From the sequence record PZ534511.1: DNA of 64,000 bases. The stretch is one strand, 5' to 3'. The stretch is from a phage. The notes under the pieces are model-generated. The model was not told where the DNA came from. It saw nothing but the letters and a program-made list of their open reading frames with translations, and did not search any database. Shown piece by piece: positions 1-26,377 of this stretch; position 1 is the first letter of the stretch, and each line of letters starts with the position of its first letter. The position numbers and the translations under genes are program-made.

Positions 1-298
1 TTTCTGTCACCTTAAAAGTTTTGCCGTGGTTTGTCCACGAAAACTGGTTAGGTTGGTAGACAATCTTTCTTATAGTGTCTGGGTATTTAGGGTGGGATTT
101 CCTGTTTAGTGTGGCAAACCCAGATGCCAGCATACCCATCGTGCCATCTCCTCTAGCTTCCCTGTAGATATTGCATGCCAGAATGTTTTCCTTAGTATCT
201 GATGGCTTGCAAGTATGATATACTTTTTGTTTTGGTGCTGCAACAACAGGCAGCGATAAAAGTGCGCTCAAAATAATAGCAAAGATCTTAATTTTCAC
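1..298 (-). CDS. Secreted cell-wall hydrolase, SleB/Hydrolase_2-like (partial; 3' end beyond window start)
   Basis: Own minus-strand translation: GTG start at 298-296 after GGAG; frame open to position 1; signal peptide MKIKIFAIILSALLSLPVVAAP; motifs IYREARGDG, ATLNR, YPDTI, QPNQFSW. Absent from track because no stop in window. Confidence 0.6.
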   Translation of the reverse strand, partial: MKIKIFAIILSALLSLPVVAAPKQKVYHTCKPSDTKENILACNIYREARGDGTMGMLASGFATLNRKSHPKYPDTIRKIVYQPNQFSWTNHGKTFKVTE

Positions 299-307
299 AA
301 TGACTCC

Positions 308-334
308 AAATAGAAAATCCCCGCCGAAGCGGGG
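308..334 (-). terminator. Rho-independent terminator
   Basis: Hairpin CCCCGC-cgaa-GCGGGG (319-334) followed on minus strand by ATTTTCTATTT. Confidence 0.5.
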
Positions 335-347
335 GAGGTCTTAGAAA

Positions 348-728
348 TTAATCGTAGTGTGCCAAAATCTCTCCATCGTTGCAAGTTCCCTCTACAAAGT
401 TATGAAGATTCATGCACTCATCTTGATAGAAGAATTTACCGCTTTTCAGCCGTAGGCCAAACAACTCCGCATCTCCACGATGGCAAGCCTCTACAAGTTC
501 ATAGATTTCATACGGCAACTCTCCGTCGTCATGGAAGAATCCAGCCTTATCGTTGACATAAATGAAGAAATAATCACTGCTATCGCAAGCGTCCAATATT
601 TTAAACCAGACTTCATCTACATCTTTTTCTCGGATATCGATCACGCAAGTGGAGCTGCATTCGTACTCCTTCTCCGGCTCCTCGGTCAATACCACCAGGT
701 AGTTTCCCCGCTTACCTACTTTAGCCAT
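348..728 (-). CDS. Hypothetical protein
   Basis: Track ORF 348..776; start moved to internal ATG (MAKVGKRGNY) preceded by G-rich RBS, removing overlap with ATPase gene. Confidence 0.5.
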   Translation of the reverse strand: MAKVGKRGNYLVVLTEEPEKEYECSSTCVIDIREKDVDEVWFKILDACDSSDYFFIYVNDKAGFFHDDGELPYEIYELVEACHRGDAELFGLRLKSGKFFYQDECMNLHNFVEGTCNDGEILAHYD

Positions 729-738
729 ACAACCCCCC

Positions 739-1923
739 TTAAGCTTTAGCCAAAATGGCGCTAAACTCTTCACCAAACTCTTTTACAATCTTCATCAGGT
801 TTGGGTATGCTTTGATCAGCTGAGCAACAATCTTGTCACGCCCTTTACCGATAAGCAAGGCATTTCCTAAGGCATTAGGTTTCATCATCGCCATAAAGAC
901 TGAGAATACAAAATCTCGGTTCTCGTCCTTGAAGTTTTCCCAAAGGAAATCGAGGAAGTTTGCCACGCAGCTGACAAGATCTTCGTCTGAGATACTTGCA
1001 TTTTCCATCATATTGCGAATAGCGATACAACCTTCAGATCCAAGAATCCACAAAATGTCTGGCTGCTTAGGACCTACGTATTCTTTGCAGCCACCTGCCA
1101 TAATCCGACCGATTTCCGGTAAATTACGTTTCTTGGTGTGGTAAGTCCAGATCTCTACCGCTGCAGTGTGACCAATAGCACCTTGTAGAAGAACACGGGC
1201 CATAGCGTCAGAAATAATACCGCTGTCAAAATCGTGCAAGATGTCAGATGCAGCAACCCAAGATCGTGGTGTGGCAAAAGATGGACAATTAATCTCAGCC
1301 ATAGCCTCATAATTATCAATAGCTGATGGAACTCTTTTCAGATACCCAATTACAGAGGAGTGAACCCCGTTGAGGAATGCGTAGTCCTCAATAAACACCT
1401 CTGCATTGCTTGTAACCTCTACAATGATAAAACGGTTAGCCAGAGGGGCTTCGAGCGCCGAAAGAACCGCACCATCTGTAGAACGGTTACCCGCAGCCAC
1501 AAAAACAGAACCTTTAGGGAATGCATAGGTGCCGCACTTGTGGTCAAGCATAATTTGCATTGCAACCTTTTGCAGGTAGTTATCTGCATGAGTGAGCTCA
1601 TCCAGAAAGATAATTCCGCTCCAGTCAGGATCCGCAGGCCAAAATTCTGGAATTGCAAACACTGTACGTGTAGTTCCATCCGCTTCTACAGGGATAGGTA
1701 GCCCAGATAAGTCGGCAGGATCTTTATCTGACAGTCGCACGTCAACAAGGTTGTCATCTCGCTCACCGAACATATTATCAGCGATCTGCTTCATCACCTG
1801 GCTTTTACCCACACCCATTGGTCCCAAAATTAGGACAGATCGGCTATGACGTTGGGCAAACTGAATAATAGCTGGCAACTCACGGACAGTGATTTGACCA
1901 CTTTCGAATACGTTTCTTGACAT
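739..1923 (-). CDS. AAA+ ATPase, MoxR/CbbQ-like (AAA_5 type)
   Basis: Walker A GPMGVGKS, Walker B IIFLDEL, VFVAAGNRS sensor region; 394 aa. Confidence 0.8.
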   Translation of the reverse strand: MSRNVFESGQITVRELPAIIQFAQRHSRSVLILGPMGVGKSQVMKQIADNMFGERDDNLVDVRLSDKDPADLSGLPIPVEADGTTRTVFAIPEFWPADPDWSGIIFLDELTHADNYLQKVAMQIMLDHKCGTYAFPKGSVFVAAGNRSTDGAVLSALEAPLANRFIIVEVTSNAEVFIEDYAFLNGVHSSVIGYLKRVPSAIDNYEAMAEINCPSFATPRSWVAASDILHDFDSGIISDAMARVLLQGAIGHTAAVEIWTYHTKKRNLPEIGRIMAGGCKEYVGPKQPDILWILGSEGCIAIRNMMENASISDEDLVSCVANFLDFLWENFKDENRDFVFSVFMAMMKPNALGNALLIGKGRDKIVAQLIKAYPNLMKIVKEFGEEFSAILAKA

Positions 1924-2192
1924 TAGTAAAAGTCCTCTACTTGTGTGTAAGTGTTTTCAAAGTTTTCCAAAACAGATATCACATCGAATCTGTCAATATC
2001 ATACGTGACTCTCCAGTTGTACGCAACCCTTTCTGCTGTTGCCTCTTCTGGCGCTAGTCGTCTGCTGGCATAAAAGAGTGTTGGAGTACACTTTCTTGCT
2101 TGCCCTCTAACTTTCCCATAATAATATCTGTGAATATCTTTGTCAAAATTTAACTCTTTTTCTGCACGAAGTTCATATTGCTGGTATAACAT
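1923..2192 (-). CDS. Hypothetical protein
   Basis: Track ORF in tightly packed minus-strand operon; no recognisable motif. Confidence 0.5.
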   Translation of the reverse strand: MLYQQYELRAEKELNFDKDIHRYYYGKVRGQARKCTPTLFYASRRLAPEEATAERVAYNWRVTYDIDRFDVISVLENFENTYTQVEDFY

Positions 2193-2236
2193 CTCTACTA
2201 CTCCTTAAGCAGCATCCTTGCCGCCATTCCTGCCCA

Positions 2237-2617
2237 CTAAAATGCAGTCCGAATCCAGACAAGGTTCTTATCTGCCCAATCATAGAGGCAAGTCATTGCA
2301 CTATTGAATTGCTCACACGGAGGATAATCTTCTTCCATCTGGCGCATAGCAGAGCCTTGTGGGTAAAGCTCCCGTGCTGCAAACCACGCGTCGTAGTCAT
2401 CAACGGTGTCGAAGTAGTATACAACATCCTCTAACTCAGGATCGAACTTTGAACTATCAGGATCCAGTTGTTCAGGGAACTTGGAGCGTAACTTGCCAGC
2501 CACAATACTTGCCAACTCGCTAACATGCTTATTGTCCCACTCCACTAGCTTCCCGTCTTCAGTGATGCGTCCTAACCACTGATCATGAAGGTCAACTGTT
2601 GTCTTCCACTGAGCCAT
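2237..2617 (-). CDS. Hypothetical protein
   Basis: Track ORF, same operon; acidic; no motif recognised. Confidence 0.5.
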   Translation of the reverse strand: MAQWKTTVDLHDQWLGRITEDGKLVEWDNKHVSELASIVAGKLRSKFPEQLDPDSSKFDPELEDVVYYFDTVDDYDAWFAARELYPQGSAMRQMEEDYPPCEQFNSAMTCLYDWADKNLVWIRTAF

Positions 2618-2619
2618 TA

Positions 2620-2877
2620 TCAGTCCACCTCTTCTTCTCGTTGTAGTTCAAGATACCCGTAGGTCTGGACATCTTGAAGGGTGTGGAACTCCCCCTCTGC
2701 CGCTAAGGCACGAACAACTTGGCACAAAACCTTATGAGGAACTTCATCCAAACCTAGATTCAGTGCAGGAAACACCTTATCTAAGTCAACAAAATAAACG
2801 AACTGTAGCTCACCAGCTTCAAAAGGTGTATCTTCAATAAACATCTTCTCGGCATTAGTCAAGATCTGCACTTTCAT
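2620..2877 (-). CDS. Hypothetical protein
   Basis: Track ORF; start/stop abuts neighbours. Confidence 0.5.
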   Translation of the reverse strand: MKVQILTNAEKMFIEDTPFEAGELQFVYFVDLDKVFPALNLGLDEVPHKVLCQVVRALAAEGEFHTLQDVQTYGYLELQREEEVD

Positions 2878-3233
2878 TATTCTACCTCCTCTTCTTTTTC
2901 TTCGGCATTAGTTTCATGGCTACCCCACTCGGGAGTTTCCACCTCGATAGTAAACTCACGCACTACACGGTAATTGCCCATGAAGCGCTCTACTTCGTCA
3001 AGGCTTATGGAGAGGCCATTGGCAACCAGGTCTGCAGCACCCTCTTCTACCAGGTAGTCCAGATTGGCTTCCAGAGCCTTAGGTTCAAACCCTGTCAATG
3101 CAATCAGATAACCTTCCCCTTCATCAGGGAGGACAATACAGCCCAATTGATTTTCTTTAAAAAGGCAGTGACCATCATTATTGATTGGGTGTTCATTGCA
3201 GTAAATAGCTGCACGATAAGTAACTTTAGACAT
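2877..3233 (-). CDS. Hypothetical protein
   Basis: Track ORF 2877..3254 (TTG); likelier start is ATG at 3233 (MSKVTYRA...) 9 nt after AAGGAG; this start region is one copy of a 29-bp inverted repeat. Confidence 0.5.
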   Translation of the reverse strand: MSKVTYRAAIYCNEHPINNDGHCLFKENQLGCIVLPDEGEGYLIALTGFEPKALEANLDYLVEEGAADLVANGLSISLDEVERFMGNYRVVREFTIEVETPEWGSHETNAEEKEEEVE

Positions 3234-3238
3234 CGGTA
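3210..3238 (-). repeat. 29-bp perfect inverted repeat, copy A (TACCGATGTCTAAAGTTACTTATCGTGCA on minus strand)
   Basis: Covers ATG and first 7 codons (MSKVTYRA) of gene 2877..3233; identical to 5072..5100 on plus strand. Confidence 0.85.
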
Positions 3239-3246
3239 AGGTCTCC

Positions 3247-3525
3247 TTAGGCAATTGTCATTTTACATTCTTGAAATTTTAACACAAGACGGTGATTGTG
3301 TCTAGTGTCTAAAAAGATTTTTTCAACCATCAGGCACACGGTATAACCGTCCATCTTGTTGACAACAAAATCTCCAGGATGAGGGAGGATGTCTCCCGGA
3401 TTGGGGAAACATAGTCCACTCAGAAAGGCATCGTCAGTGGTGGACTTAATAGATTTCCACACACTGTCTGCCTGAACATGTTCACCGACGTAATATACAT
3501 TACCACATGCCTTCATCATAGTCAA
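3247..3525 (-). CDS. Hypothetical protein
   Basis: Track ORF; 4-nt overlap with upstream gene. Confidence 0.45.
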   Translation of the reverse strand: MTMMKACGNVYYVGEHVQADSVWKSIKSTTDDAFLSGLCFPNPGDILPHPGDFVVNKMDGYTVCLMVEKIFLDTRHNHRLVLKFQECKMTIA

Positions 3526-4421
3526 ACCCTCGCATAAATTAAACTTGTATCAGTATACTTCTTTAATGGGTAAATATCCTGTCCATAGATGCAATCATTA
3601 AACACCTCATCTACCCAAAGGCTACACTTATATCCCATCATTTCTAAAACACCCATCTCTTCTTCGGTAAACTTATCACCGCTCTTGCAAGATGTCAATA
3701 CCTCATTCTGAACTCTTGCTACCTCGAAGCGGTTATTGGCAATATCGCTATTGGCGATCAAATACTCACCTAGAGGGTGTGCGGCATTAAAGATGCACAG
3801 CGGACGGCTGACGTAATAGTCTCCAGGTGTATAAAAATTGTTGAGGTCTTTCACTAGAACATTCTTATCAGTCACTTCATTTATAACATCATGCATATCG
3901 CACATCTTTATATGTTTGAGGATTCCATCCCCCATCACAAAATAAAAACTTGCTGAGACACTTTCGGCATAGATCTTACTAGATCCGTTGTAGTTGTATT
4001 TTACTCGGATGCTAACGGGGGTTTTTCCTGTCGCGTTAGCCATCATCCAAAGAAATGGCAGCTCATACTTCTCCTCTGAGGAAACAAAAGGTGAGGTAGC
4101 CAGAGATCGAAAACCTCCAGAGAAGTTGAAAGTTACAGAACCGCTCCGGCGGTATGATACCGCGTATTCTACTTTTATATCGACATACCCATTGGAATAG
4201 GTGTGTCCTTCATTATCTAAATATGTCCACTTATCAGACCCAGATACCAATCTACGCTCAATAACCTTCATCACTATAGGAATTAATGGGTTGGTACAAA
4301 CCGCTTTTGAAGTAGCTTTATCATCTAAAGCCTCGTAAATTGCAGAAAGGATGTCCCCAGCTGAAAGATTGGTTGTTATGTCCTGTTTCCACCGCGTACT
4401 AAAACTGTTAAGATTTGCCAT
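3522..4421 (-). CDS. Hypothetical protein
   Basis: Track ORF, 299 aa, first gene of minus-strand operon. Confidence 0.5.
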   Translation of the reverse strand: MANLNSFSTRWKQDITTNLSAGDILSAIYEALDDKATSKAVCTNPLIPIVMKVIERRLVSGSDKWTYLDNEGHTYSNGYVDIKVEYAVSYRRSGSVTFNFSGGFRSLATSPFVSSEEKYELPFLWMMANATGKTPVSIRVKYNYNGSSKIYAESVSASFYFVMGDGILKHIKMCDMHDVINEVTDKNVLVKDLNNFYTPGDYYVSRPLCIFNAAHPLGEYLIANSDIANNRFEVARVQNEVLTSCKSGDKFTEEEMGVLEMMGYKCSLWVDEVFNDCIYGQDIYPLKKYTDTSLIYARV

Positions 4422-16972: not shown

Positions 16973-18718
16973 TTAACGTTGTGCAATTACTACGTCTACG
17001 ATATCACCAACACCACAATATGTTAATTGCAGCAAGGTAACACTATTAGCCTTGTTATTAATAACAGGCGTTGCCGACAGGATAGCATACTTATCGTGCA
17101 AAGTCACGTTGTGACCTACAGCATCCTGAATGACATAGATAACCGCAGTGAATGGATAAGGTTTATCTTCCGCTGATGTACCAGGCCATTGTCCTATTGT
17201 AAAATCCCCTTTCGCGTGGACAACATACATACTGGCCTGCCCGTTAGGTGTCCATGTCCCACTGGACGCGTCAACCTCCTCTAAATCAAAATCTACCTTT
17301 CCTGCGTGGAAAGTAGGGGCAGTAATGGTTTTACCCGCCTCAATTTCTTGAGAGGTGGTTATCTTGCCACTGGAGTTAATGCCATTACAAACAAAGTTGA
17401 CATTAGAGAAGTCTGGCAGCCACCCAGTCACTGTGCCGGATATTTCAAGGTTGTGAAGGTAGGTGGTGCCCGTCCCTGCTGCGTTTAAACTAACATCTCC
17501 ATTTACCTGCAAGTTTCTGGTAACGTTGCAGTTTTCAGAGTTTGCAGTTGTTGCAGTTAAAGTAGTGGTTGTCAGCTCGGTAATTACACCTTTGTTGGCT
17601 GTAAGCCCTTCCCCTTCAAAAGTTGCACGCTCATTGACTCTTAGGGTATTCAGAGCTATGTTTTGGATAGAGGCTGTACCTCGAATAACTACAGATCCGC
17701 CAACTTCTAAATCACCATTTATTAATGCGTCCCCCGTGCTTTCAATATAGCTAGGGTAAATCATGGTGCCATCGACAGAGTAGGTTATCCCTGTAACAGT
17801 GCCTGTCACCTCAAGGTTCTTAACCCTGGTGGTTCCATCTACCTGCAATGTCGGTTCGGTTGCTGCCTTCATGGCATTACCACGAATGTACACGTAGTCA
17901 AAAAAGTTATTACCTAGACCATCAAAATGCACATCGTTATTATTAGCCACTGGTTTCCCAGAAGTTATAGTGTCAGCTATAACCCTGTGGGTGGACACTT
18001 CATGAGGTTGCAGCTCTGTGCTTCTCCAGTCTGCATGCTTAGGATCACTCCACGCAAAAGTAAGTGTAGAAGTATTTGCCGTGAGGATTAGGTTCCTGAA
18101 GCGTGCAGTAGAATCTGCTCCATTAACAGGCCCATGTAAGGTGAGTGTGCCACCAACTATAGTGTTAGCAAGTTCTGTAAGACCTTTTACCACCAAAGAT
18201 CCTACAGTAACTTTCATTCCCTCCATGGCTTCAAATATGCTATCCACATAGTCAACAACAAACTCTGTGTTTGCTATAGACTCGGATTTGTCGTCCATTG
18301 GAGGCGTAGGTACTCGCGGGTCACCTTCGAACCTCGGACTGTTAAGTTTTGCGTAGTATTTTGCCATTACTGCAGAATCGGTATATAATCTCCAGTTTGG
18401 AGATTGTGAAGGATCTGCTGGCATTCTAACCGGGTTAGATTTTGATGCTGCGGGAGCGTACCACCACTGAGGGCCTGTGTCCCCTTTAAACTCGTACAGC
18501 TGGTTAAAAACTGTTGTGGATGCACCATACGCCCAAGGGATCGGTGGCGTTTTAAAATAAAGGGTGTCAAGCATGGCTTTTCGTACCGTAGGGATGGTGG
18601 TCCCATCCTCTACGACAACTTCATCCACAGCGTTACCGTTGACAATCAGGTGCAAACGTTCAGAATCAACAATTACTTGATCTACCGCCTGCTCAAAGCT
18701 TGTCATGTCTTGCGCCAT
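16973..18718 (-). CDS. Tail fibre/tailspike-like protein (581 aa)
   Basis: Position in fibre cluster; Thr/Gly/Asn-rich repeat-like composition. Confidence 0.45.
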   Translation of the reverse strand: MAQDMTSFEQAVDQVIVDSERLHLIVNGNAVDEVVVEDGTTIPTVRKAMLDTLYFKTPPIPWAYGASTTVFNQLYEFKGDTGPQWWYAPAASKSNPVRMPADPSQSPNWRLYTDSAVMAKYYAKLNSPRFEGDPRVPTPPMDDKSESIANTEFVVDYVDSIFEAMEGMKVTVGSLVVKGLTELANTIVGGTLTLHGPVNGADSTARFRNLILTANTSTLTFAWSDPKHADWRSTELQPHEVSTHRVIADTITSGKPVANNNDVHFDGLGNNFFDYVYIRGNAMKAATEPTLQVDGTTRVKNLEVTGTVTGITYSVDGTMIYPSYIESTGDALINGDLEVGGSVVIRGTASIQNIALNTLRVNERATFEGEGLTANKGVITELTTTTLTATTANSENCNVTRNLQVNGDVSLNAAGTGTTYLHNLEISGTVTGWLPDFSNVNFVCNGINSSGKITTSQEIEAGKTITAPTFHAGKVDFDLEEVDASSGTWTPNGQASMYVVHAKGDFTIGQWPGTSAEDKPYPFTAVIYVIQDAVGHNVTLHDKYAILSATPVINNKANSVTLLQLTYCGVGDIVDVVIAQR

Positions 18719-18727
18719 GATTTCTCC

Positions 18728-18994
18728 TTAAGCTTTTTGCTCTTCGTTTTTAACGTGGTCAGGGTGCTGGCAACCCCACCGGAGCGAGATGAATTTGCTA
18801 ATAAGCTGGGGGCAAGCTACTGAAGGCGCGTATATCCACGCATACCATTCAGGAAGCGTATCATTATACCCCATATGAATAAACACCCCAGTCATCACCG
18901 CCATGCCTATGTTCGACCATAGCTTAGATTGGGACACTTTCGTAGGGTCATCAGATGCCGCAACCAGTCCCCATAAAAACTGAGTTAGTTTCAT
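18728..18994 (-). CDS. Small membrane protein (88 aa)
   Basis: Hydrophobic segment LWSNIGMAVMTGVFIHMGY; immediately downstream of fibre paralog B. Confidence 0.4.
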   Translation of the reverse strand: MKLTQFLWGLVAASDDPTKVSQSKLWSNIGMAVMTGVFIHMGYNDTLPEWYAWIYAPSVACPQLISKFISLRWGCQHPDHVKNEEQKA

Positions 18995-19005
18995 TTACCC
19001 TCTTT

Positions 19006-20052
19006 TTAAGCATAAGATATAGTGATCCATTGACCATTTACAAGTTTTTGGATAGCACCTGTCCAGTAATCACCTTGATAAGGGTGTTTATAAGCGTAGT
19101 TACCAGAGCACATCACATGTCCAGGGTAGACTCTTGACTCTCTGTAGGTGGTTTTAAAACGGTTTGCTATCCTTACATCATCAACCCCTCTGCTAGGCAT
19201 AGGGATAGTAAGGTTACCGCTACTGTCTGCGCCGTTACCATTTACCCTGCGGACCACGTTTCTTCCACCAACTGTTGCATATTGGCCCCTGACGGTTTCA
19301 TCGTTACAATCAACTCTTCCACCTATTTGAGCGCTTCCGCAGGATTGTTGTCCATTAACAGTGGCTCTTGGTATCGTGACCGCATTGGCATTTGCAGAGG
19401 AACTTTTTGCATCGTTGCATTCAAGATTTCCTTGGATAGCCAGTCTTGCACGGTTGGCAGTTATAGCATTGAGCTTCATAGCTGAAAACACAGGCTGCCC
19501 ACCAGAAGGTTGAAATCTCCAACGGAACCCATCTATTTGGTGAGAAGGATCATCAAGGTCTGTGCCGTCAGCACCACCGATGTTGTCCATAATCCAGAAA
19601 TCCATCGTCGTCTTGTCTGGAGTTATGGTGGTATATATTGCCGCACTGTCTGTTGACGCAGATGCAAACTCGATTCTTTGAAGACCTAAAGTTTGAGTCT
19701 GAGTCATTATGTCTCCAGACTTGTCAACATATAGATCGTCCATTTCTTCAGGTGAGTATACATTGAGAACTTGACGTGCAGCAGCTTTGTCTGGAACGTC
19801 TGCTAGATTATTAGTGACCCTTAAGAATCTATTATCCCATCCTGGGACAACATCTTCTGTTAAATGCTTCAACCACGCAGAAAGCATGTGAAGTTCAAAG
19901 TTAACAACTTCACATGCCATTCTTTGTGTCATATCCCAACCTTTCAATCTCTCTTCTTTTTTTGGTTGAGATTTATTCAACTCTCCCGTATTTTCAAGCA
20001 CAACATCCTGATTGGCCCAAATATCAAGAGGGATAACTGGTTTAGTCATCAC
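19006..20052 (-). CDS. Tail fibre protein, paralog B
   Basis: Homologous along its length to 21064..22104; GDIMTQTQTLGLQRIEF collar-like motif; shared C-terminus QKLVNGQWIT. Confidence 0.6.
   Translation of the reverse strand: MMTKPVIPLDIWANQDVVLENTGELNKSQPKKEERLKGWDMTQRMACEVVNFELHMLSAWLKHLTEDVVPGWDNRFLRVTNNLADVPDKAAARQVLNVYSPEEMDDLYVDKSGDIMTQTQTLGLQRIEFASASTDSAAIYTTITPDKTTMDFWIMDNIGGADGTDLDDPSHQIDGFRWRFQPSGGQPVFSAMKLNAITANRARLAIQGNLECNDAKSSSANANAVTIPRATVNGQQSCGSAQIGGRVDCNDETVRGQYATVGGRNVVRRVNGNGADSSGNLTIPMPSRGVDDVRIANRFKTTYRESRVYPGHVMCSGNYAYKHPYQGDYWTGAIQKLVNGQWITISYA
19021..19050 (-). repeat. 30-bp identical box at 3' end of fibre paralog B
   Basis: AGTGATCCATTGACCATTTACAAGTTTTTG also at 21079..21108; encodes QKLVNGQWIT. 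Confidence 0.8.
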
Positions 20053-20138
20053 GTTCTCCTGAGAAAATTCCTTAGGACTATTTTAACACTTTAGAGAACA
20101 AAATGCAAGAACGGAGTCCTTTCCGTTCTGACCTTTGT

Positions 20139-20453
20139 TTACCTTTTACTATGCTCTACGAGCATGTGCAAAATCTTTTGTACATCAGCTCGGATGCCGG
20201 AGACATCTGTCCTGACATCCTGCTTAAGGTCGTTAATATCGGCCTCTAGCTTGCTTAACCGAGTCTCGATAACGGAATCAAGTCTATCTTTTGTAACCAT
20301 ACTGTTTTTCACTAAGATGAGGTCTTTCTCCAGCTCATCCAACCTCTTGGAAATGCCTTTCCATTTGGTGTGCCACTGGTTGAAAGCCCATACACAGATC
20401 GGGACAACGGTACCCATGCAGATACCGTACAATGCCGCCAAATCCAACTCCAC
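20139..20453 (-). CDS. Membrane-anchored coiled-coil protein (104 aa)
   Basis: N-terminal hydrophobic helix LAALYGICMGTVVPICVWAF followed by heptad-like region. Confidence 0.4.
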   Translation of the reverse strand: MELDLAALYGICMGTVVPICVWAFNQWHTKWKGISKRLDELEKDLILVKNSMVTKDRLDSVIETRLSKLEADINDLKQDVRTDVSGIRADVQKILHMLVEHSKR

Positions 20454-20464
20454 AACACCTCCTC

Positions 20465-21049
20465 TTAGAGGGTAGGTCGCTCCGGGAAGAAAATGTCAGG
20501 GGCTTTAGATGTATCTATTTCAAGAAGTTTTACCCTGTACATTTTCAAATCTCTGATGTTACGTTTCTGGTCATCAGTAAGATCATATTCAAGGTCAATC
20601 ATGTCTTGATAGGCACCAATTCTAGCAGTAGCCCAAGCAAGTTCTGTCTCTATGACACCCTCTGCCTGTTGAACAAAGAATTCATTGTCTGTGACAAATT
20701 CATCACCAACTAAACGCAAAGCGTCGTGGTGAAGCATAATGTTTTCTGGTACCTCTTCTTTTTTGGCGATAACCACACGAAGACCTGGAGCAGGCCATAA
20801 GGCATCAGGTTCTTCTGTAGATGTCTTAAGAATTCCCTTCTCGTCAACAAGTAGGAAGATACACCCTGGATTTTCTTGTCGTAATGTTCGTGACTGCACA
20901 TACCAATCACCATCATCATTACGTAAAAAATACCCAGTGTATGCGGTGTAATCCTCGACCTCTTGAGGGGTCAGCTCCTTGGTTTCCTTGTTGGAGTAGT
21001 ATTCGCCAGATCCCGGTTGGTAAAGTTTAAACTCTTGAAGTATTTTCAT
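20465..21049 (-). CDS. Tail fibre assembly chaperone (Tfa-like)
   Basis: C-terminal MYRVKLLEIDTSKAPDIFFPERP matches Tfa-family signature; directly downstream of fibre paralog A. Confidence 0.6.
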   Translation of the reverse strand: MKILQEFKLYQPGSGEYYSNKETKELTPQEVEDYTAYTGYFLRNDDGDWYVQSRTLRQENPGCIFLLVDEKGILKTSTEEPDALWPAPGLRVVIAKKEEVPENIMLHHDALRLVGDEFVTDNEFFVQQAEGVIETELAWATARIGAYQDMIDLEYDLTDDQKRNIRDLKMYRVKLLEIDTSKAPDIFFPERPTL

Positions 21050-21063
21050 GCTAGTCCTCCGAT

Positions 21064-22104
21064 CTATGCATAATTAACAGTGATCCATTGACCATTTACA
21101 AGTTTTTGTAAAGGTCCTGCCCAGTAGGTTGAACCACGCATCTCTTTTTTGTCACCGAAATGCCAGCCTGTGACAACGTAGCCGTTGCGGATTGGAGATT
21201 CAGAAACGCCGTCCACAAGTCTTGCACCGATTCTGATGTCTTGCACACCTGTCTGCGGGATAGTGATCGTTACATCACCGTTACCGTTAGCCGTCACTCC
21301 ATTCACGGAGCGCACCACATTTCTGTTACCGACAACACAGTGCTGGCTTCTTACAACCATACTGTCACAACTTGCACCACCATTAACATATACTGACCCA
21401 GCCGTCAACTGACTAGCCACATTACAGTTGGTGAATGTTGCTGTATTGCTGATAGTAAGGTTATTGCACCTCATGTTATCGACAACTTCAACATTGCCTA
21501 CCACTTTCAACAGCGCACGATTAGCCGTGATCGCGTTAAGGTACATCAAAGTGAACTCTGGATTAATATCCGGCTGAGTTGGCTGGAATCTCCAACGAAA
21601 CGCATCTACTGTAGATGTACCACCATCATCAAACGACCCGGTATTATCACTTAACCCAAAGTCGAGAGTTGTCTTATCTGGGCCAATAGTTGTCTCTATC
21701 CAAGCCTTATCTGTCTCGGCAGCTTTAAAGTTGATACGTTGCAACCCCAAGGGGCCTGTCATTGTATCACCTGTAACTTTTACATACCTGGCGTCTGCCT
21801 CTTCCTTAGTGATAATCCCAAGGTTTCTACGGGCAACAGGGATGTTCAAAAGATCGCTCAAGTTATTATCACGTACCAGATAACGGCCTTCTTGAGCGGG
21901 GATCTGCTCGTCAGCAATGTATTTTGCCCAAGTTCCGAGCATATTGAAAATATAGTTAAGTTCTTCACAGGATGGCTTTTGACCAAGATCCCAACCTTTT
22001 CTCCACAAATCATCAATCGGGCGTAGCCTGTTCTGTCTGTGGGTGTTAGGCAGAACCTGATCCTCCTCTGCCCAAATCTCTAATGGAAAACTAGGTTTTG
22101 ACAT
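21064..22104 (-). CDS. Tail fibre protein, paralog A
   Basis: GDTMTGPLGLQRINF motif; C-terminus QKLVNGQWIT identical to paralog B. Confidence 0.6.
   Translation of the reverse strand: MSKPSFPLEIWAEEDQVLPNTHRQNRLRPIDDLWRKGWDLGQKPSCEELNYIFNMLGTWAKYIADEQIPAQEGRYLVRDNNLSDLLNIPVARRNLGIITKEEADARYVKVTGDTMTGPLGLQRINFKAAETDKAWIETTIGPDKTTLDFGLSDNTGSFDDGGTSTVDAFRWRFQPTQPDINPEFTLMYLNAITANRALLKVVGNVEVVDNMRCNNLTISNTATFTNCNVASQLTAGSVYVNGGASCDSMVVRSQHCVVGNRNVVRSVNGVTANGNGDVTITIPQTGVQDIRIGARLVDGVSESPIRNGYVVTGWHFGDKKEMRGSTYWAGPLQKLVNGQWITVNYA
21079..21108 (-). repeat. 30-bp identical box at 3' end of fibre paralog A
   Basis: Exact copy of 19021..19050; flanking bases differ. Confidence 0.8.
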
Positions 22105-22116
22105 TTTATCTCCTGA

Positions 22117-24189
22117 TTATGAGAAGTCTGGAGGGACAACATCTTCTACATACCCTTTCAGAGCAACCTGCCCCATATGAAGCACGGTAGAATCTCTGGC
22201 TGTAACAGTGATGCTGTCAGACATTACTTGCGGGTATGCCCACACATACTGTTTTACCTCAGGGTATCTATACTCTATGGTTGCCATGTTTCCGCAGATA
22301 CATCTCCATAAAAATTCTTGGTAATTCCTGGTTGGGTCGTAGCCATATACCGGAGCAAGCTCTTTACTAGGAACGAACCCTGCAAGGTATTGTATTTCAG
22401 ACGGTTGCCAACCTAACTTAACGATAGGTATGTTTACAGACTCTTTTGCCTTTTCAATACCTCCCTGCATCACCCAATCGTAGCACTCGGTGCAGAAGAA
22501 ATCAAGAGCACCTGCTTCTTTTTTATATTGGTCAGCAAGGTTCAGCTTTTGCGTAAGCTCTGTTTCCATAATGGTTGGGAAAAACAGCAGAGCTGTCATC
22601 TGAGCTGATGCAGCGTGTGCCTTTATTGCCTTTGAAATGGCCGCAATACGAGCGCCAAGCTTACCACGACAAAATGCTACATACTTGTCGTAAACACCGC
22701 CAGTTTTAGGATCGTCAATAGTCCCAATATCTAATGCATACTCACCTGTCTCATCATAAAACGCCTGCTTTGTAGGGTAATCATAAATACAAGGTCTACG
22801 AGTATCGGTATTGTACCACCACCACGGTTCACCAACCTGCATAATCACTGGCAGGTTGTTTCTCATAGCGGCTGATGCAAAATTCTTAAATACTGCAGTA
22901 AGGAAATTCATACCCTCTTCAATGGTTGGAGACAGGAGGTAGCTACAGGGTGTATACCCTGTTTTAGCGTAGTTATCGTTCCAGTCTCTTTGGGTCCATT
23001 CCAACGGGCAGGCATCGCTGAAAAGCTCAAAACTTACAGATTGCATAACGTCGAAGTTATGTCGTTTGGCATTGTACATAAAATCATCATGCCATTTATA
23101 AGCTGCAGCGTTTAGCGCCCCTGTTCTGTTTATAGACCATTGGGTTCCTGACCATGTGTAGTCATAATAATGACTCATACCAACATAATGGTTTATGGTT
23201 CCGGTATAGCCCAGACGCTTGATATTGTTCAACACCCTTAAAGGAGATACGTTCCACATATCGTCATATGCGGTGCAGATCCCAACGTCGTGCTCTTTAA
23301 CCTGAATATTGTTAAGTTGCATCATTTTCCAGCCTGTGTCTGGCTGGAGCAGATCTAGGCGCAACTCACACTCTACATTTTCCGTTCTCGGGTCTGTGCT
23401 ATTACTTACCCAGTCTTTAGGCATAAGCGGTATTAAAATCCTTCTCACCTGTCGAGGATCAACACCCATCATGTTGTTGTTCTGATCCATCCCGACGCAG
23501 TCCTCGAAATCAATATGAATCTCTGCAACATTCTTATCCTCTGAGATGCTGACAGCATATTGAGCTAAAGGAACATAGATGATTGTGCCATCAACAAGGT
23601 CTACAGTCATAATCATCTTTTCAGGGGTGGAGAAGTTGCTGGCATTGGTTATTGACATTCTGAACCAAAGCTTGGTGTTTCTCATCTCATAGTGATCATC
23701 AAACCCAATACCGAAATGGTCATACTTGTCAACTGTTTCCCAAATGCACCCAGCCATACCTCCATATGTTCTTGACACTAAACGGTTAATACAACAGTTG
23801 TTATCTGCAACAATACAGGTACTTTCAGTCTGCTGAGTAGTTGTAACCCAATACCTTGGGTGAAACATTCTCTCCTCAACAGTATCCCAAGATATCCTGT
23901 CAAGATTCTCATCTGAAACTATTGTACATTTCGCCCTTTGTGTTCCAATCATCACCCCTTGAGATTTTGATGAAAACTCCATAAAGAAGCTTCTTGGCAA
24001 CCTGTTGGGTAATTTGTCAACAATTTCCACTGGGATCTCAATACTGGTTGCCCCAATTGGGATAGTTACATCACCCTCAACATGATTATAATCCCTACCA
24101 GGAACGGCAGTATCCTGAACTGTGCGGTAATGAAACCGTGCAGCCATTGTAGAGTAATCACGGTAAGGTTTAAAAATAGCTGTTGCCAT
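22117..24189 (-). CDS. Baseplate-associated fibre/spike protein (690 aa)
   Basis: Position between gpI-like gene and fibre paralogs; no firm motif. Confidence 0.4.
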   Translation of the reverse strand: MATAIFKPYRDYSTMAARFHYRTVQDTAVPGRDYNHVEGDVTIPIGATSIEIPVEIVDKLPNRLPRSFFMEFSSKSQGVMIGTQRAKCTIVSDENLDRISWDTVEERMFHPRYWVTTTQQTESTCIVADNNCCINRLVSRTYGGMAGCIWETVDKYDHFGIGFDDHYEMRNTKLWFRMSITNASNFSTPEKMIMTVDLVDGTIIYVPLAQYAVSISEDKNVAEIHIDFEDCVGMDQNNNMMGVDPRQVRRILIPLMPKDWVSNSTDPRTENVECELRLDLLQPDTGWKMMQLNNIQVKEHDVGICTAYDDMWNVSPLRVLNNIKRLGYTGTINHYVGMSHYYDYTWSGTQWSINRTGALNAAAYKWHDDFMYNAKRHNFDVMQSVSFELFSDACPLEWTQRDWNDNYAKTGYTPCSYLLSPTIEEGMNFLTAVFKNFASAAMRNNLPVIMQVGEPWWWYNTDTRRPCIYDYPTKQAFYDETGEYALDIGTIDDPKTGGVYDKYVAFCRGKLGARIAAISKAIKAHAASAQMTALLFFPTIMETELTQKLNLADQYKKEAGALDFFCTECYDWVMQGGIEKAKESVNIPIVKLGWQPSEIQYLAGFVPSKELAPVYGYDPTRNYQEFLWRCICGNMATIEYRYPEVKQYVWAYPQVMSDSITVTARDSTVLHMGQVALKGYVEDVVPPDFS

Positions 24190-24875
24190 TAACCCTCCTG
24201 TCTAGTTGCGTTTACTGTAATACTTTCACAATAAATGGTTGTGGTGTCCCAATCAGGTCTTACGTCAGGAACATACAGCAAAGTAGCCAGCCCACCAACT
24301 CCGAATTGGTTTTCTTCCCACACTGATCCGAAGCCAAGAGCTGTAGAGTCCCCTTCAAAACCAAAAGCTTGCCCTTGCGATTCTGTAAGACGCAAATGAC
24401 AAGGTAATGGTAGCATATCTAAGATCTGATCGATAGACTGCAATATGTCAAAGCAAGTTTTTCTAATATTTATGTCAAACCTGAAGTTGTCTCCTTTCCA
24501 CGTATCGAAATTGTCTCTTCCGAACAATTGTCGCAAGGTGGAGATGACATCTTCGCGAGTCCCGCCCCTTGATGCTGCGGCCTGCTGAATAATTAGTGTG
24601 GCACGAAAATCAGCATCTGAAAGTCCATTCCTAAGAATACCAAGTTGATTACCAACTTCGTCAAGGTATCTTCCGCTGGCATTGTTAAGCAATCTTCCTT
24701 CAGCCAAACCTACCAGCATCTTATCAACATCCTCCAACCTTTTAAGGTATACGGTTAAGAATGTGACTAAATTAACCTTCTCAGCCAGAAAATCTCCAGG
24801 CAGGTAGTCAAGACCTCCCTGAACAAAATCTGGCAGAGTGTGGATGTGGTTAACATCCGACTTAATCTCTGCCAT
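24189..24875 (-). CDS. Baseplate protein, gpI-like
   Basis: Follows baseplate J-like gene with start/stop overlap; assignment by position and size. Confidence 0.4.
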   Translation of the reverse strand: MAEIKSDVNHIHTLPDFVQGGLDYLPGDFLAEKVNLVTFLTVYLKRLEDVDKMLVGLAEGRLLNNASGRYLDEVGNQLGILRNGLSDADFRATLIIQQAAASRGGTREDVISTLRQLFGRDNFDTWKGDNFRFDINIRKTCFDILQSIDQILDMLPLPCHLRLTESQGQAFGFEGDSTALGFGSVWEENQFGVGGLATLLYVPDVRPDWDTTTIYCESITVNATRQEG

Positions 24876-24886
24876 ATCTCGCCGCC

Positions 24887-26377
24887 TTAAATAGTTTGTT
24901 GGAAAGTTATATTACTTTCGTCGAGGTCAAACACCTCGGTCATGTTCGCAACAATATCGTTTGTAGTGTAAGCTTCATCAGAAGCTCCTACGGATTTAAC
25001 TTGAATTACCAGCCTATTAAATCTGCCTATTGACACAGCAGCAGATGCAGCACCTACCAATTGGATATTATACAACGTATCTGCAACATCCAGTCCGTTA
25101 ACAACCTGCAAAAGAGCCTCTATAATGGCATCTTTTTCGGTTGTAGAAAGCGCAGCACCGGAGTAGGTAATTCTTACATCTAGGCGGTAGGTGTTTGCCT
25201 TGGAGTAATAAATTCTTTCAGTTTGACCGTCAGATGTAGTGACATCGTAGAAAATATTACCATAAGTCCTGTTCGTACAGGCTATAGTTTGGTAAAGTGC
25301 TTGGCAAATGTCTTCCGTTGCACCACCAAACACAACCACTTGGAACTTGTAAGGGGGTATACCTTTAGCATCAGTTTTATCGGTGTTATTGGAGAACACT
25401 CTCACTTTCTCAACACCTTTCACCTCGCTTACAGCGCTAAGGATTGCAGGACGGGTAGCCTTAGATGTTAACTGTTTTGTGCTGGAAGCTCTTAAGCGAT
25501 ACTCTGAGTCTTTCTCAACATCCCTGCCCTCATTGAATCTTTCTCGGTTGGTAAGCTTGATAAATCCACTGGGAGTAGGTGACATTGTTGTCACGGTTTC
25601 TGCCTCTCTTGACAACTCACCCGCCTCGTTAGCGATAACATCCAGTGTGATAGTTCTTTCCCCTACAATCGGGGATACTCTGAAATCTACTCTACTATTA
25701 AGTCCAACTTGATCAAGATTCGAATTGTACCCTATCCACAACGTTCCTGTCAACATATCTATCTGAATCAAATCGTCGTTCAACAGGGTTGTATTATCGA
25801 CAATGAACTGCTTAATCTCTCCGTAAAAGCTTGGCAGATCAGAAGAGTCCAGAGACTTATCTGTTAAAACCAGACTTTTTGTTTTGATACTTCCATCTGT
25901 CTGGTTGGTAATTTGAAAGTTGTATTTACCAATCCTTAGGTCTGGGGCATTTATTCTGTGAGCAATAAGATTCCCTGCTACTTGCACATCGTTGCTAAGA
26001 ACAAAGTTGCCACTGTCCAGCGTATAAGTTTTGGAATCATAAATCATATTGTACGGCACAGTTGTGTTGATTGTCAACTGGCAGGTACCTGATGATTTAG
26101 AACGGCCTCTTCGGTAAATACCTTGTCTTCCAAGAAGCTCATCTAGGTAAATACCTTCTGCCCCATACAGCGTCTGTGATGCGTATACAGATGCTGCCAT
26201 AAGAATAAGTTGATACTCTCGCTCGTTGAAGATAGTGGTCAGCTTATCTGCAACGGAGTTACTCTGTACGTTGAAGTTTTCGCCAAAAGCACGGATCAGG
26301 CTTTGCTTAGTTTCAACGATTAGGTCATTTAGGGTTGGTATAACGAAACCAGCCTCTGTCAATCCATACTTAGCCAC
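24887..26377 (-). CDS. Baseplate J-like protein
   Basis: N-terminal pattern resembles Baseplate_J family (YGAEGIYLDELLGRQGIYRRG); GTG start after GGAGGAG. Confidence 0.5.
   Translation of the reverse strand: MAKYGLTEAGFVIPTLNDLIVETKQSLIRAFGENFNVQSNSVADKLTTIFNEREYQLILMAASVYASQTLYGAEGIYLDELLGRQGIYRRGRSKSSGTCQLTINTTVPYNMIYDSKTYTLDSGNFVLSNDVQVAGNLIAHRINAPDLRIGKYNFQITNQTDGSIKTKSLVLTDKSLDSSDLPSFYGEIKQFIVDNTTLLNDDLIQIDMLTGTLWIGYNSNLDQVGLNSRVDFRVSPIVGERTITLDVIANEAGELSREAETVTTMSPTPSGFIKLTNRERFNEGRDVEKDSEYRLRASSTKQLTSKATRPAILSAVSEVKGVEKVRVFSNNTDKTDAKGIPPYKFQVVVFGGATEDICQALYQTIACTNRTYGNIFYDVTTSDGQTERIYYSKANTYRLDVRITYSGAALSTTEKDAIIEALLQVVNGLDVADTLYNIQLVGAASAAVSIGRFNRLVIQVKSVGASDEAYTTNDIVANMTEVFDLDESNITFQQTI

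Follow-up and report, generated by a model that had tools for sequence, protein, structure and literature searches.

Two paralogous short tail fibres (STFs) together with one tail fibre chaperone are known from Vequintavirinae sensu stricto, i.e., as gp033, gp032 and gp030 of phage rV5 and in the BASEL phages Bas48-50, where the locus is highly conserved between genomes (Maffei et al. 2021, PMC8594841, S5C/D Fig; all statements on this paper refer to excerpts of it). In the same excerpts, the STF pair and its chaperone are traced by homology to the locus of phi92-like phages, which has a single fibre, and in the end to the phage Mu proteins GpS and GpU. The sequence analysed here, called the window, is a stretch of 64,000 nucleotides (nt) of phage DNA (record PZ534511.1). 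Between 19006 and 22104, on the minus strand, it contains two fibre genes, called paralogs A and B, and one gene for a Tfa-like chaperone (Table 1). The present text deals with this locus, and in particular with a 30-nt box which is identical in A and B.

The Mu system, GpS/GpU (TfaMu) (PDB 5YVQ), resembles the locus in that: (i) the C-terminal tip is homologous, including QK-x-(V/I)NG-x-W; (ii) a Tfa-family gene lies directly downstream; (iii) there are two alternative tips per genome. It differs by one constant N-terminal exon and two inverted C-terminal exons, each with its own chaperone, which are switched by Gin on inverted repeats (G-segment inversion, S/U to S'/U'). On the contrary, the window has two complete genes in direct orientation, one chaperone and direct repeats, and nothing in it suggests inversion. 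The co-varying Tfa gene which directly follows a Mu GpS-type tip is found for A and not for B.

For phi92 gp147 and the phiTE STF gp236 (9CUY), the likeness is that of a homologous N-terminal anchor; phiTE has also the terminal tip motif. In the phiTE baseplate structure, the joint on the wedge is built from STF residues 3-92 (i.e., the first 90 or so) (PMC11972413). In phi92, the homologue is gp147, or fibre III; six copies of it are attached under the C-terminal domain of the wedge protein, and it has been proposed to mediate irreversible adsorption (PMC13450770). Both phages differ from the window by having one such fibre gene each, and the phiTE body is long, coiled-coil and Ig-rich (554 amino acids, aa). 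The fibres of phi92 and phiTE point downwards on the wedge and are known from the virion as trimers, a state which the window paralogs would share.

In the gp37/gp38 adhesin mosaics of T-even phages, conserved motifs (GRM) flank hypervariable segments (HVS), which is the layout of Gp38. In T-even and P2/lambda-type tail fibres, tips are exchanged together with chaperone or adhesin genes. The present locus shares with them the conserved blocks around a hypervariable receptor-binding segment and the exchange of tip plus chaperone or adhesin. However, the proteins belong to unrelated families, and in the window the 3' block consists of one terminal motif and the chaperone is of the Tfa type.

The region 18700-22200 of the window is 99.9% identical to Escherichia phage DrSchubert, an rV5-like myovirus of the genus Vequintavirus. 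It matches 117 GenBank phage records, among which 114 cover at least 80% of the query at 90% identity or more; over 110 Vequintavirus genomes of GenBank share a collinear locus, with 94-100% identity. It is the STF locus of rV5-like Vequintavirus, with two fibres and one chaperone of the Tfa/GpU type. This architecture is not new since it has been published for the same phage group (excerpts of PMC8594841). What is added here is modest evolutionary detail, i.e., a patchy concerted evolution of the paralogs and an exchange of tip-Tfa cassettes in Vequintavirinae. No mention of an identical 3' box, of gene conversion between the paralogs or of tip-Tfa exchange in relatives was found in the excerpts of PMC8594841. 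It should be added that 16-21 unannotated 'Campylobacter phage' records (MG0656xx, host Campylobacter jejuni) are 98-100% identical to Escherichia coli Vequintavirus at this locus; the assignment to C. jejuni looks doubtful.

Identity of the boxes and probable gene conversion between the paralogs

Paralogs A and B are homologous end to end, as described in the earlier note on this DNA (43% aa identity, BLASTP E = 2e-94; 51% nt identity between the genes), and the conserved N-terminal motifs are as quoted there. Both match the STF family profile with E < 1e-130. The centres, which the note had regarded as the diverged part, are not the most diverged: this is the tip, i.e., 40 residues just upstream of the box (27% aa identity between A and B). 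The box CAAAAACTTGTAAATGGTCAATGGATCACT, encoding QKLVNGQWIT, is indeed exactly identical in the two genes. These are its only two occurrences in the window; no third copy was found in the 64 kb with up to 3 mismatches allowed, and 0 of 100 shuffles matched. The box is the core of a 62-nt stretch with 84% identity between A and B.

The identity of the box can be compared with that of the remaining gene. When A and B have an identical degenerate residue, they use the same codon at 42 positions upon 132 (32%) outside the box and at 9 upon 9 inside. Given identical residues, the probability of ten identical codons is 1.3e-4 with the codon usage of the window. Moreover, the codons of the box are mostly second-choice, not preferred ones. 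The nt identity of the box is real, and protein constraint, codon bias and chance do not explain it.

The best explanation of the whole, to which a probability of about 0.7 is given, is that of the known STF locus in which the box has been kept alike by recurrent short-patch gene conversion, and in which both fibres would share one Tfa. The evidence comes from two groups of relatives. The first is an uncultured sister lineage (L004, L005/L010, L006 and L011) which has the two-fibre locus, with A 73-74% identical in aa to window A; it is known from metagenomes only, and the L011 locus had no megablast match among GenBank phages. In L011, A and B are 95-100% identical in nt over about 100 nt of the tip region vs. 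60% gene-wide, and this high identity stops at the first codons of the box. A of L011 has B-type nucleotides where A of L004 and L006 keep A-type ones, which changes the residues P to A and A to Q. A of L010 has a shorter B-type patch than A of L011. The conversion tracts of this lineage end at the 5' edge of the box. The B-type patches differ between the genomes and represent separate and recent events of conversion from B to A.

The second group is L034-L036, where A and B are respectively 75% and 70% nt-identical to the window genes. Their boxes A and B are 1-2 nt apart, and both use CTG, GTC and CAG where both window boxes use CTT, GTA and CAA (synonymous changes). In a four-sequence site analysis, 211 sites supported orthology gene-wide, 24 were concerted and 28 supported the third topology (noise); within the box, 3 sites were concerted and 0 supported orthology. 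In the two Vequintavirus lineages, the boxes resemble differing mixtures of the A-type and B-type states of L011, with which an independent homogenisation of the boxes in each lineage would be consistent.

As the patches differ in position and length across lineages, a patchy and recurrent gene conversion between the paralogs is indicated. The patches would be the 30-nt box in the window phage, the box with its three shared changes in L034-L036, and about 100 nt of the tip without the box in L011.

The identity between boxes A and B was tabulated for nine distinct Vequintavirus loci. It is 30/30 in three of them, i.e., the window, L020 (Pr121LW) and one IMG/VR contig. In the other six the boxes differ by 1-4 nt, including an L-to-F change in the B genes of FV3-like genomes. 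Since the box has drifted in several Vequintavirus lineages, conversion would be occasional, not continuous. In Escherichia phage BP9 (L019), A has a window-type box and B an FV3-type box (TTT, AAC, ACC), which hints at a possible recombination junction between Vequintavirus lineages somewhere between the two fibre genes.

Some points weigh against this explanation by conversion together with a shared Tfa: (i) the signal of the box consists of 3 synonymous sites in one additional lineage, while about 0.7 are expected by homoplasy per 30 nt (Poisson P about 0.04); (ii) a conversion tract of 30 nt is short, and it is maybe the remnant of a longer one, as seen from the 84% identity of the surrounding 62 nt; (iii) in FV3-like genomes the boxes are 3-4 mismatches apart and have not been re-homogenised; (iv) as regards the use of the Tfa by B and its contact with the box, the AlphaFold2 monomer model of A is poor, with a mean pLDDT (predicted local distance difference test) of 60.6 and a predicted template modelling score of 0.33 (25-sequence alignment).

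Terminal motif, Tfa gene and alternatives to conversion

The alignment of 37 homologues leads to four successive elements: (i) a conserved body which ends in V-x-G-R-x-V-V-R-x-V-N-G-x-x-A-D-x-N-G...G-V-Q-D-I-R; (ii) a hypervariable tip of 39-50 residues, of which at least 5-6 unrelated-looking types exist between the GVQDIR block and the box; (iii) the box motif Q-K-(L)-V-N-G-x-W-(I/Y)-(T/N)-V, with Q333 and W340 invariant and K334 and G338 nearly so (25-37 homologues); (iv) 3-4 variable residues. The motif of box A aligns with PVQKNINGTWYNV of Mu GpS and with PIQKKVNGVWVTI of the phiTE STF. Residues 286-343 of A match residues 440-501 of Mu GpS (5yvq) with E = 1.7e-6 for the whole sequence and 0.0066 for the C-terminal stretch alone. 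With a profile of 25 sequences, positions 293-356 match residues 440-503 of 5yvq (domain E = 2.1e-8), and 8ju3 is also matched. Judged from these alignments, the box motif is the best-conserved protein element of the whole fibre family and the last motif of a Mu GpS-type tip. The aa identity of the boxes is due to purifying selection on this motif.

At the other end, residues 1-108 of A match residues 1-111 of the phiTE STF (9cuy; phmmer E = 1.4e-19), and residues 1-91 of the profile match the same protein with a domain E of 2.5e-26. Residues 72-100 of A match a motif, YL-x-x-x-NL(S/A)D(L/V)-x-x-x-x-x-AR-x-NLG, which is repeated 5-6 times in 9zd7 'short tail fiber gp92'; this segment appears to be a widespread repeat unit of fibre shafts. 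The fibre tip would bind the core of the lipopolysaccharide for irreversible adsorption. A structural role of the box is hinted at by the low-confidence monomer model of A, which places it in a terminal beta-hairpin (residues 326-342); Foldseek of this model against PDB gave nothing below E = 0.7.

The following mechanism may be proposed for the conversion. The patch that survives in the window lineage falls on the segment where protein constraint is strongest. Both fibres would probably need the single Tfa and the same terminal folding/trimerisation element, and selection would keep the 3' ends alike enough for conversion to continue.

The Tfa-like chaperone gene follows A only, as had been noted before. 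Its product matches PF02413 with 45.6 bits (cut-off 22.1) over residues 121-192, and a Tfa profile of 12 sequences matched no other open reading frame (ORF) of the window. A chaperone activity on the fibre, or on both fibres, is predicted. In the modular model of Tfa (PMC9608196), the N-domain is variable and binds to the tip of the fibre, and trimerisation is the role of the conserved C-domain.

The covariation of tips and Tfa in relatives fits this model. In 11 relatives, tip type and Tfa type are always paired, whatever the body of the fibre. For example, body, tip and Tfa N-domain are respectively 97%, 28% and 28% identical between Av-05 and L030; 44%, 86% and 55% between L030 and L029; 92%, 17% and 33% between L026 and L032; and 78%, 75% and 83% between L028 and L032. 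L026 and L029 are 97% identical over the first 115 or so codons of the fibre gene; a segment of about 40% identity begins at the GVQDIR block, includes the tip, the box region and the complete Tfa gene, and gives way to 95% identity at the next gene. The same holds for every inter-genome swap examined: low identity spans the box region and the whole Tfa gene and recovers at the next gene only. The breakpoints in single-fibre relatives are thus located at the GVQDIR block on the upstream side and at the end of the Tfa gene on the other. Within the exchanged unit the box is a conserved island, with identical residues and about 75-80% nt identity. Since a tip travels with the Tfa gene behind it, the box belongs to the interior of the exchanged unit rather than to its border.

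Two observations on metagenomic sequences may be added. In five Vequintavirinae-like contigs (L026, L028, L029, L031 and L032), bodies which are 72-92% identical bear at least three tip types unrelated to each other, and every tip type comes with a Tfa type of its own. An Av-05-like contig (L030, body 97% identical to that of L022, i.e., Av-05) bears the tip and Tfa type of a distant group. As for A itself, its tip is 61% identical to that of Phapecoctavirus J-01 while the bodies are 27% identical, and its C-terminal 57 aa are 58-61% identical to fibres of Phapecoctavirus and of 52-kb Salmonella/E. coli phages with unrelated bodies. No module swap was seen within Vequintavirus among the more than 110 GenBank genomes, in agreement with the excerpts of PMC8594841.

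These results bear on the proposal of the earlier note that the boxes are potential recombination sites for receptor-binding modules. Its first part holds: recombination acts on the 3' ends, as seen from the tracts of the L011 lineage and the shared changes of L034-L036. Its second part does not: the box is neither a dedicated site nor an exchange breakpoint between phages, and the comparison of relatives for swaps at the box, which the note had called for, places the breakpoints elsewhere.

A broader form of this proposal is that boxes and conserved 5' parts act as homology arms by which receptor-binding modules are swapped between paralogs or phages, thus altering host range. It would agree with the position of the box as conserved 3' flank of the hypervariable tip across the family, with the B-to-A tracts of the L011 lineage which alter tip residues and end at the 5' edge of the box, and with the similarity of the C-terminal 57 aa of A to fibres with unrelated bodies. 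However, it is unlikely, since the swaps run through the box and the whole Tfa gene with tip and Tfa types always paired, since no swap is found among the Vequintavirus genomes, and since the arms themselves are poor: the box DNA is 76% identical between the paralogs of the L011 lineage, and at the 5' end A and B have no homology longer than 12 nt. Moreover, recombination from one direct box to the other would remove the Tfa gene, the 104-aa ORF (ORF104) and the greater part of B, and such an event would hardly be useful.

Another possibility is that there was no conversion, the box being an undiverged remnant of the duplication kept by protein constraint and chance. Just nine synonymous positions are involved, and the motif is the most conserved of the family, so that non-synonymous changes are excluded. 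This explanation is nevertheless improbable. Synonymous sites are saturated elsewhere in the genes (the 32% of same codons is about the codon-usage expectation), and 9 identical codons upon 9 then have a probability of about 1e-4; a parallel change at three sites in both boxes of the L034 lineage is unexpected without homogenisation; and the sister lineage shows that the box is free to diverge synonymously. A recent duplication is contradicted by the 43% aa identity and by the presence of both paralogs in three divergent lineages.

Selection at the nt level, whether on an RNA structure, on a regulatory or protein-binding site or on a codon-specific translation pause, is very improbable. It could account for the 20-nt core GTAAATGGTCAATGGATCAC, which is common to both window boxes and to paralog B of the distant L011 lineage, and for the 3' end of A, which folds somewhat better than shuffles (z = -2.1) and where a palindrome, TTTACAAAAACTTGTAAA (21085-21111, minus strand), overlaps the box. 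On the contrary, the B context lacks the extension of this palindrome and does not fold (z = 0.07), so that the two 3' ends have no shared structure. A scan for sigma-70-like promoters gave no site over the boxes on the coding strand, the total count being that expected from shuffles. The A and B boxes differ at 7 nt upon 30 in all four genomes of the L011 lineage (76% identity over the last 14 codons), and the L034 lineage uses three other codons in both boxes. Variation of the box within the genus is nothing unusual: in either paralog it affects 3 codons upon 10, and 25% of all 10-codon windows are at least as invariant. At the DNA level, the box is neither conserved nor specialised as a recombination site.

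Two further candidates were rejected. A Mu-like inversion switch does not apply, because the repeats are direct and the two genes, which share one strand, are both complete and have a start and an N-terminal domain of their own; no serine invertase (Gin/Cin) was found among the genes at 16973-26377. Nor does a diversity-generating retroelement, because the only repeat, exact over 30 nt and 84% identical over 62 nt, has mismatches of every kind without adenine bias; the annotation of DrSchubert contains no reverse transcriptase over 27.5 kb surrounding the locus.

Paralog B and the neighbouring genes

The bodies of A and B are respectively 44-48% and 39-42% identical to those of the single fibres of Av-05, PVP-SE1, LNA4 and L033. 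B is a derived, faster-evolving duplicate, and A is the copy most like the single fibre of relatives and retains the adjacent Tfa gene. Both paralogs are under purifying selection and B is not decaying: within the genus, the ratio of non-synonymous to synonymous substitutions (dN/dS) is 0.015-0.04 for A and 0.04-0.10 for B.

B lies downstream of A with two genes in between, behind a terminator-like hairpin and between the conserved 104-aa and 88-aa membrane proteins, and no chaperone gene adjoins it. In Av-05, PVP-SE1, L030 and L033, the slot of B (19006-20138 in the window) is occupied by a four-helix membrane protein, PF26221 (Phage_phiTE_239), of 157 aa (154 aa in L033). The gene is located at 1264-1737 in L022, 1263-1736 in L024, 5020-5493 in L030 and 4856-5320 in L033; it has no homologue in the window. 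In other relatives the slot is empty. The tip of B is a divergent version of the A/PVP-SE1 type, 37-39% identical to the tips of Av-05 and PVP-SE1, and tblastn with this tip gave no closer relative outside Vequintavirus.

For the folding of B, a shared use of the single Tfa is favoured over unaided folding, because it would also account for the 3' ends staying similar enough to convert. A more specific and tentative proposal, one of two clients for one chaperone, is that B depends on the Tfa of A via the shared terminal motif; conversion would then tie the 3' ends together, and tracts spilling into the tip (as in A of L011 and L010) would move receptor-contact residues between the paralogs.

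All genes and features of the locus are on the minus strand of the window (Table 1). The start of B was checked against the GenBank annotation of DrSchubert.

Table 1. Genes and elements in and around the STF locus, in minus-strand order (positions in the window).
Feature	Position	Strand	Basis
Lateral tail fibre with glycosidase/deacetylase domain	22117-24189	-	DrSchubert annotation
STF paralog A, 346 aa	21064-22104	-	ORF; phrog_4465, E = 1.8e-171; 'short tail fiber protein' in DrSchubert
N-terminal baseplate-attachment domain of A, about residues 1-108 (predicted)	21781-22104	-	phiTE STF homology
Tip cassette of A, residues 292-332, hypervariable receptor-binding segment of the family (predicted)	21109-21231	-	Family alignment, tip/body split
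Box A, codons 333-342, QKLVNGQWIT	21079-21108	-	Exact 30-nt repeat
Tfa, Mu GpU-type chaperone, 194 aa (predicted)	20465-21049	-	PF02413; phrog_136, E = 1e-36; 'tail fibre chaperone' in DrSchubert
104-aa ORF (ORF104), hydrophobic N-terminus and coiled coil	20139-20453	-	phrog_5345; hypothetical protein in DrSchubert
Terminator-like hairpin, then T-run (putative)	20108-20129	-	Consensus match only
STF paralog B, 347 aa from ATG at 20049	19006-20049	-	ORF; phrog_4465, E = 2.1e-166; GenBank CDS of 1044 nt, named short tail fibre protein as well
Tip cassette of B, residues 294-333	19051-19170	-	
Box B, codons 334-343, QKLVNGQWIT	19021-19050	-	Exact 30-nt repeat of box A
88-aa membrane protein at the end of the STF locus	18728-18994	-	phrog_1322; hypothetical protein in DrSchubert
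Lateral tail fibre	16973-18718	-	DrSchubert annotation

The start of B is most likely the ATG at 20049, as in the DrSchubert annotation, since AGGAG, a candidate ribosome-binding site, lies 6 nt ahead of it; the GTG at 20052, from which B had been counted before, is one codon upstream. A lies downstream of the wedge genes and of a TIM-barrel fibre gene, and is followed by the Tfa gene; this order is also found in Av-05, PVP-SE1 and L026-L036. The TIM-barrel/Calx-beta fibre gene stands before the STF gene of the window and of every relative examined but L028 (positions 1-4000), which lacks it and has a 222-nt gap in its place.

The 88-aa membrane-like ORF described after B is a conserved membrane protein, with homologues in Av-05, L026 and L029 (E = 1e-24 to 1e-35). 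The earlier description did not contain the 104-aa ORF and the hairpin, both located between the Tfa gene and B. The ORF matches a 104-aa membrane protein of Av-05 (E = 1.7e-17); it is found in PVP-SE1, L011 and L026-L036, and lies 3' of the Tfa gene in all relatives. The hairpin reads AGAACGGA-aaggac-TCCGTTCT followed by TGCATTTTGTT, and is located in the 89-nt gap between ORF104 and B. If it is a terminator, it suggests that B and the 88-aa ORF form a transcription unit apart from that of A, Tfa and ORF104. Among GenBank records, that of Murica lists a terminator and that of Gotham a promoter somewhere inside the matched 3.1-kb stretch.

Significance for host range and fibre evolution

Phages of this group are widely isolated on E. 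coli, and the locus would decide whether they adsorb irreversibly; its layout is therefore of importance for the engineering of host range. The exchangeable unit is the tip plus the Tfa gene, so that tip grafts should bring their cognate chaperone; such grafts would be joined at the GVQDIR block on the upstream side and at the end of the Tfa gene on the other, and the QK-x-VNG-x-W terminal motif is better left intact. B has a strongly diverged tip without its own chaperone gene, and one Tfa may serve both tips. If two fibres are indeed clients of one chaperone, the phage would have a built-in system for homogenising or re-diversifying the specificity for its secondary receptor inside one genome. 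The patchy concerted evolution of A and B is a small but clear case, found in nature, of receptor-binding paralogs which gene conversion has shaped inside a single phage genome.

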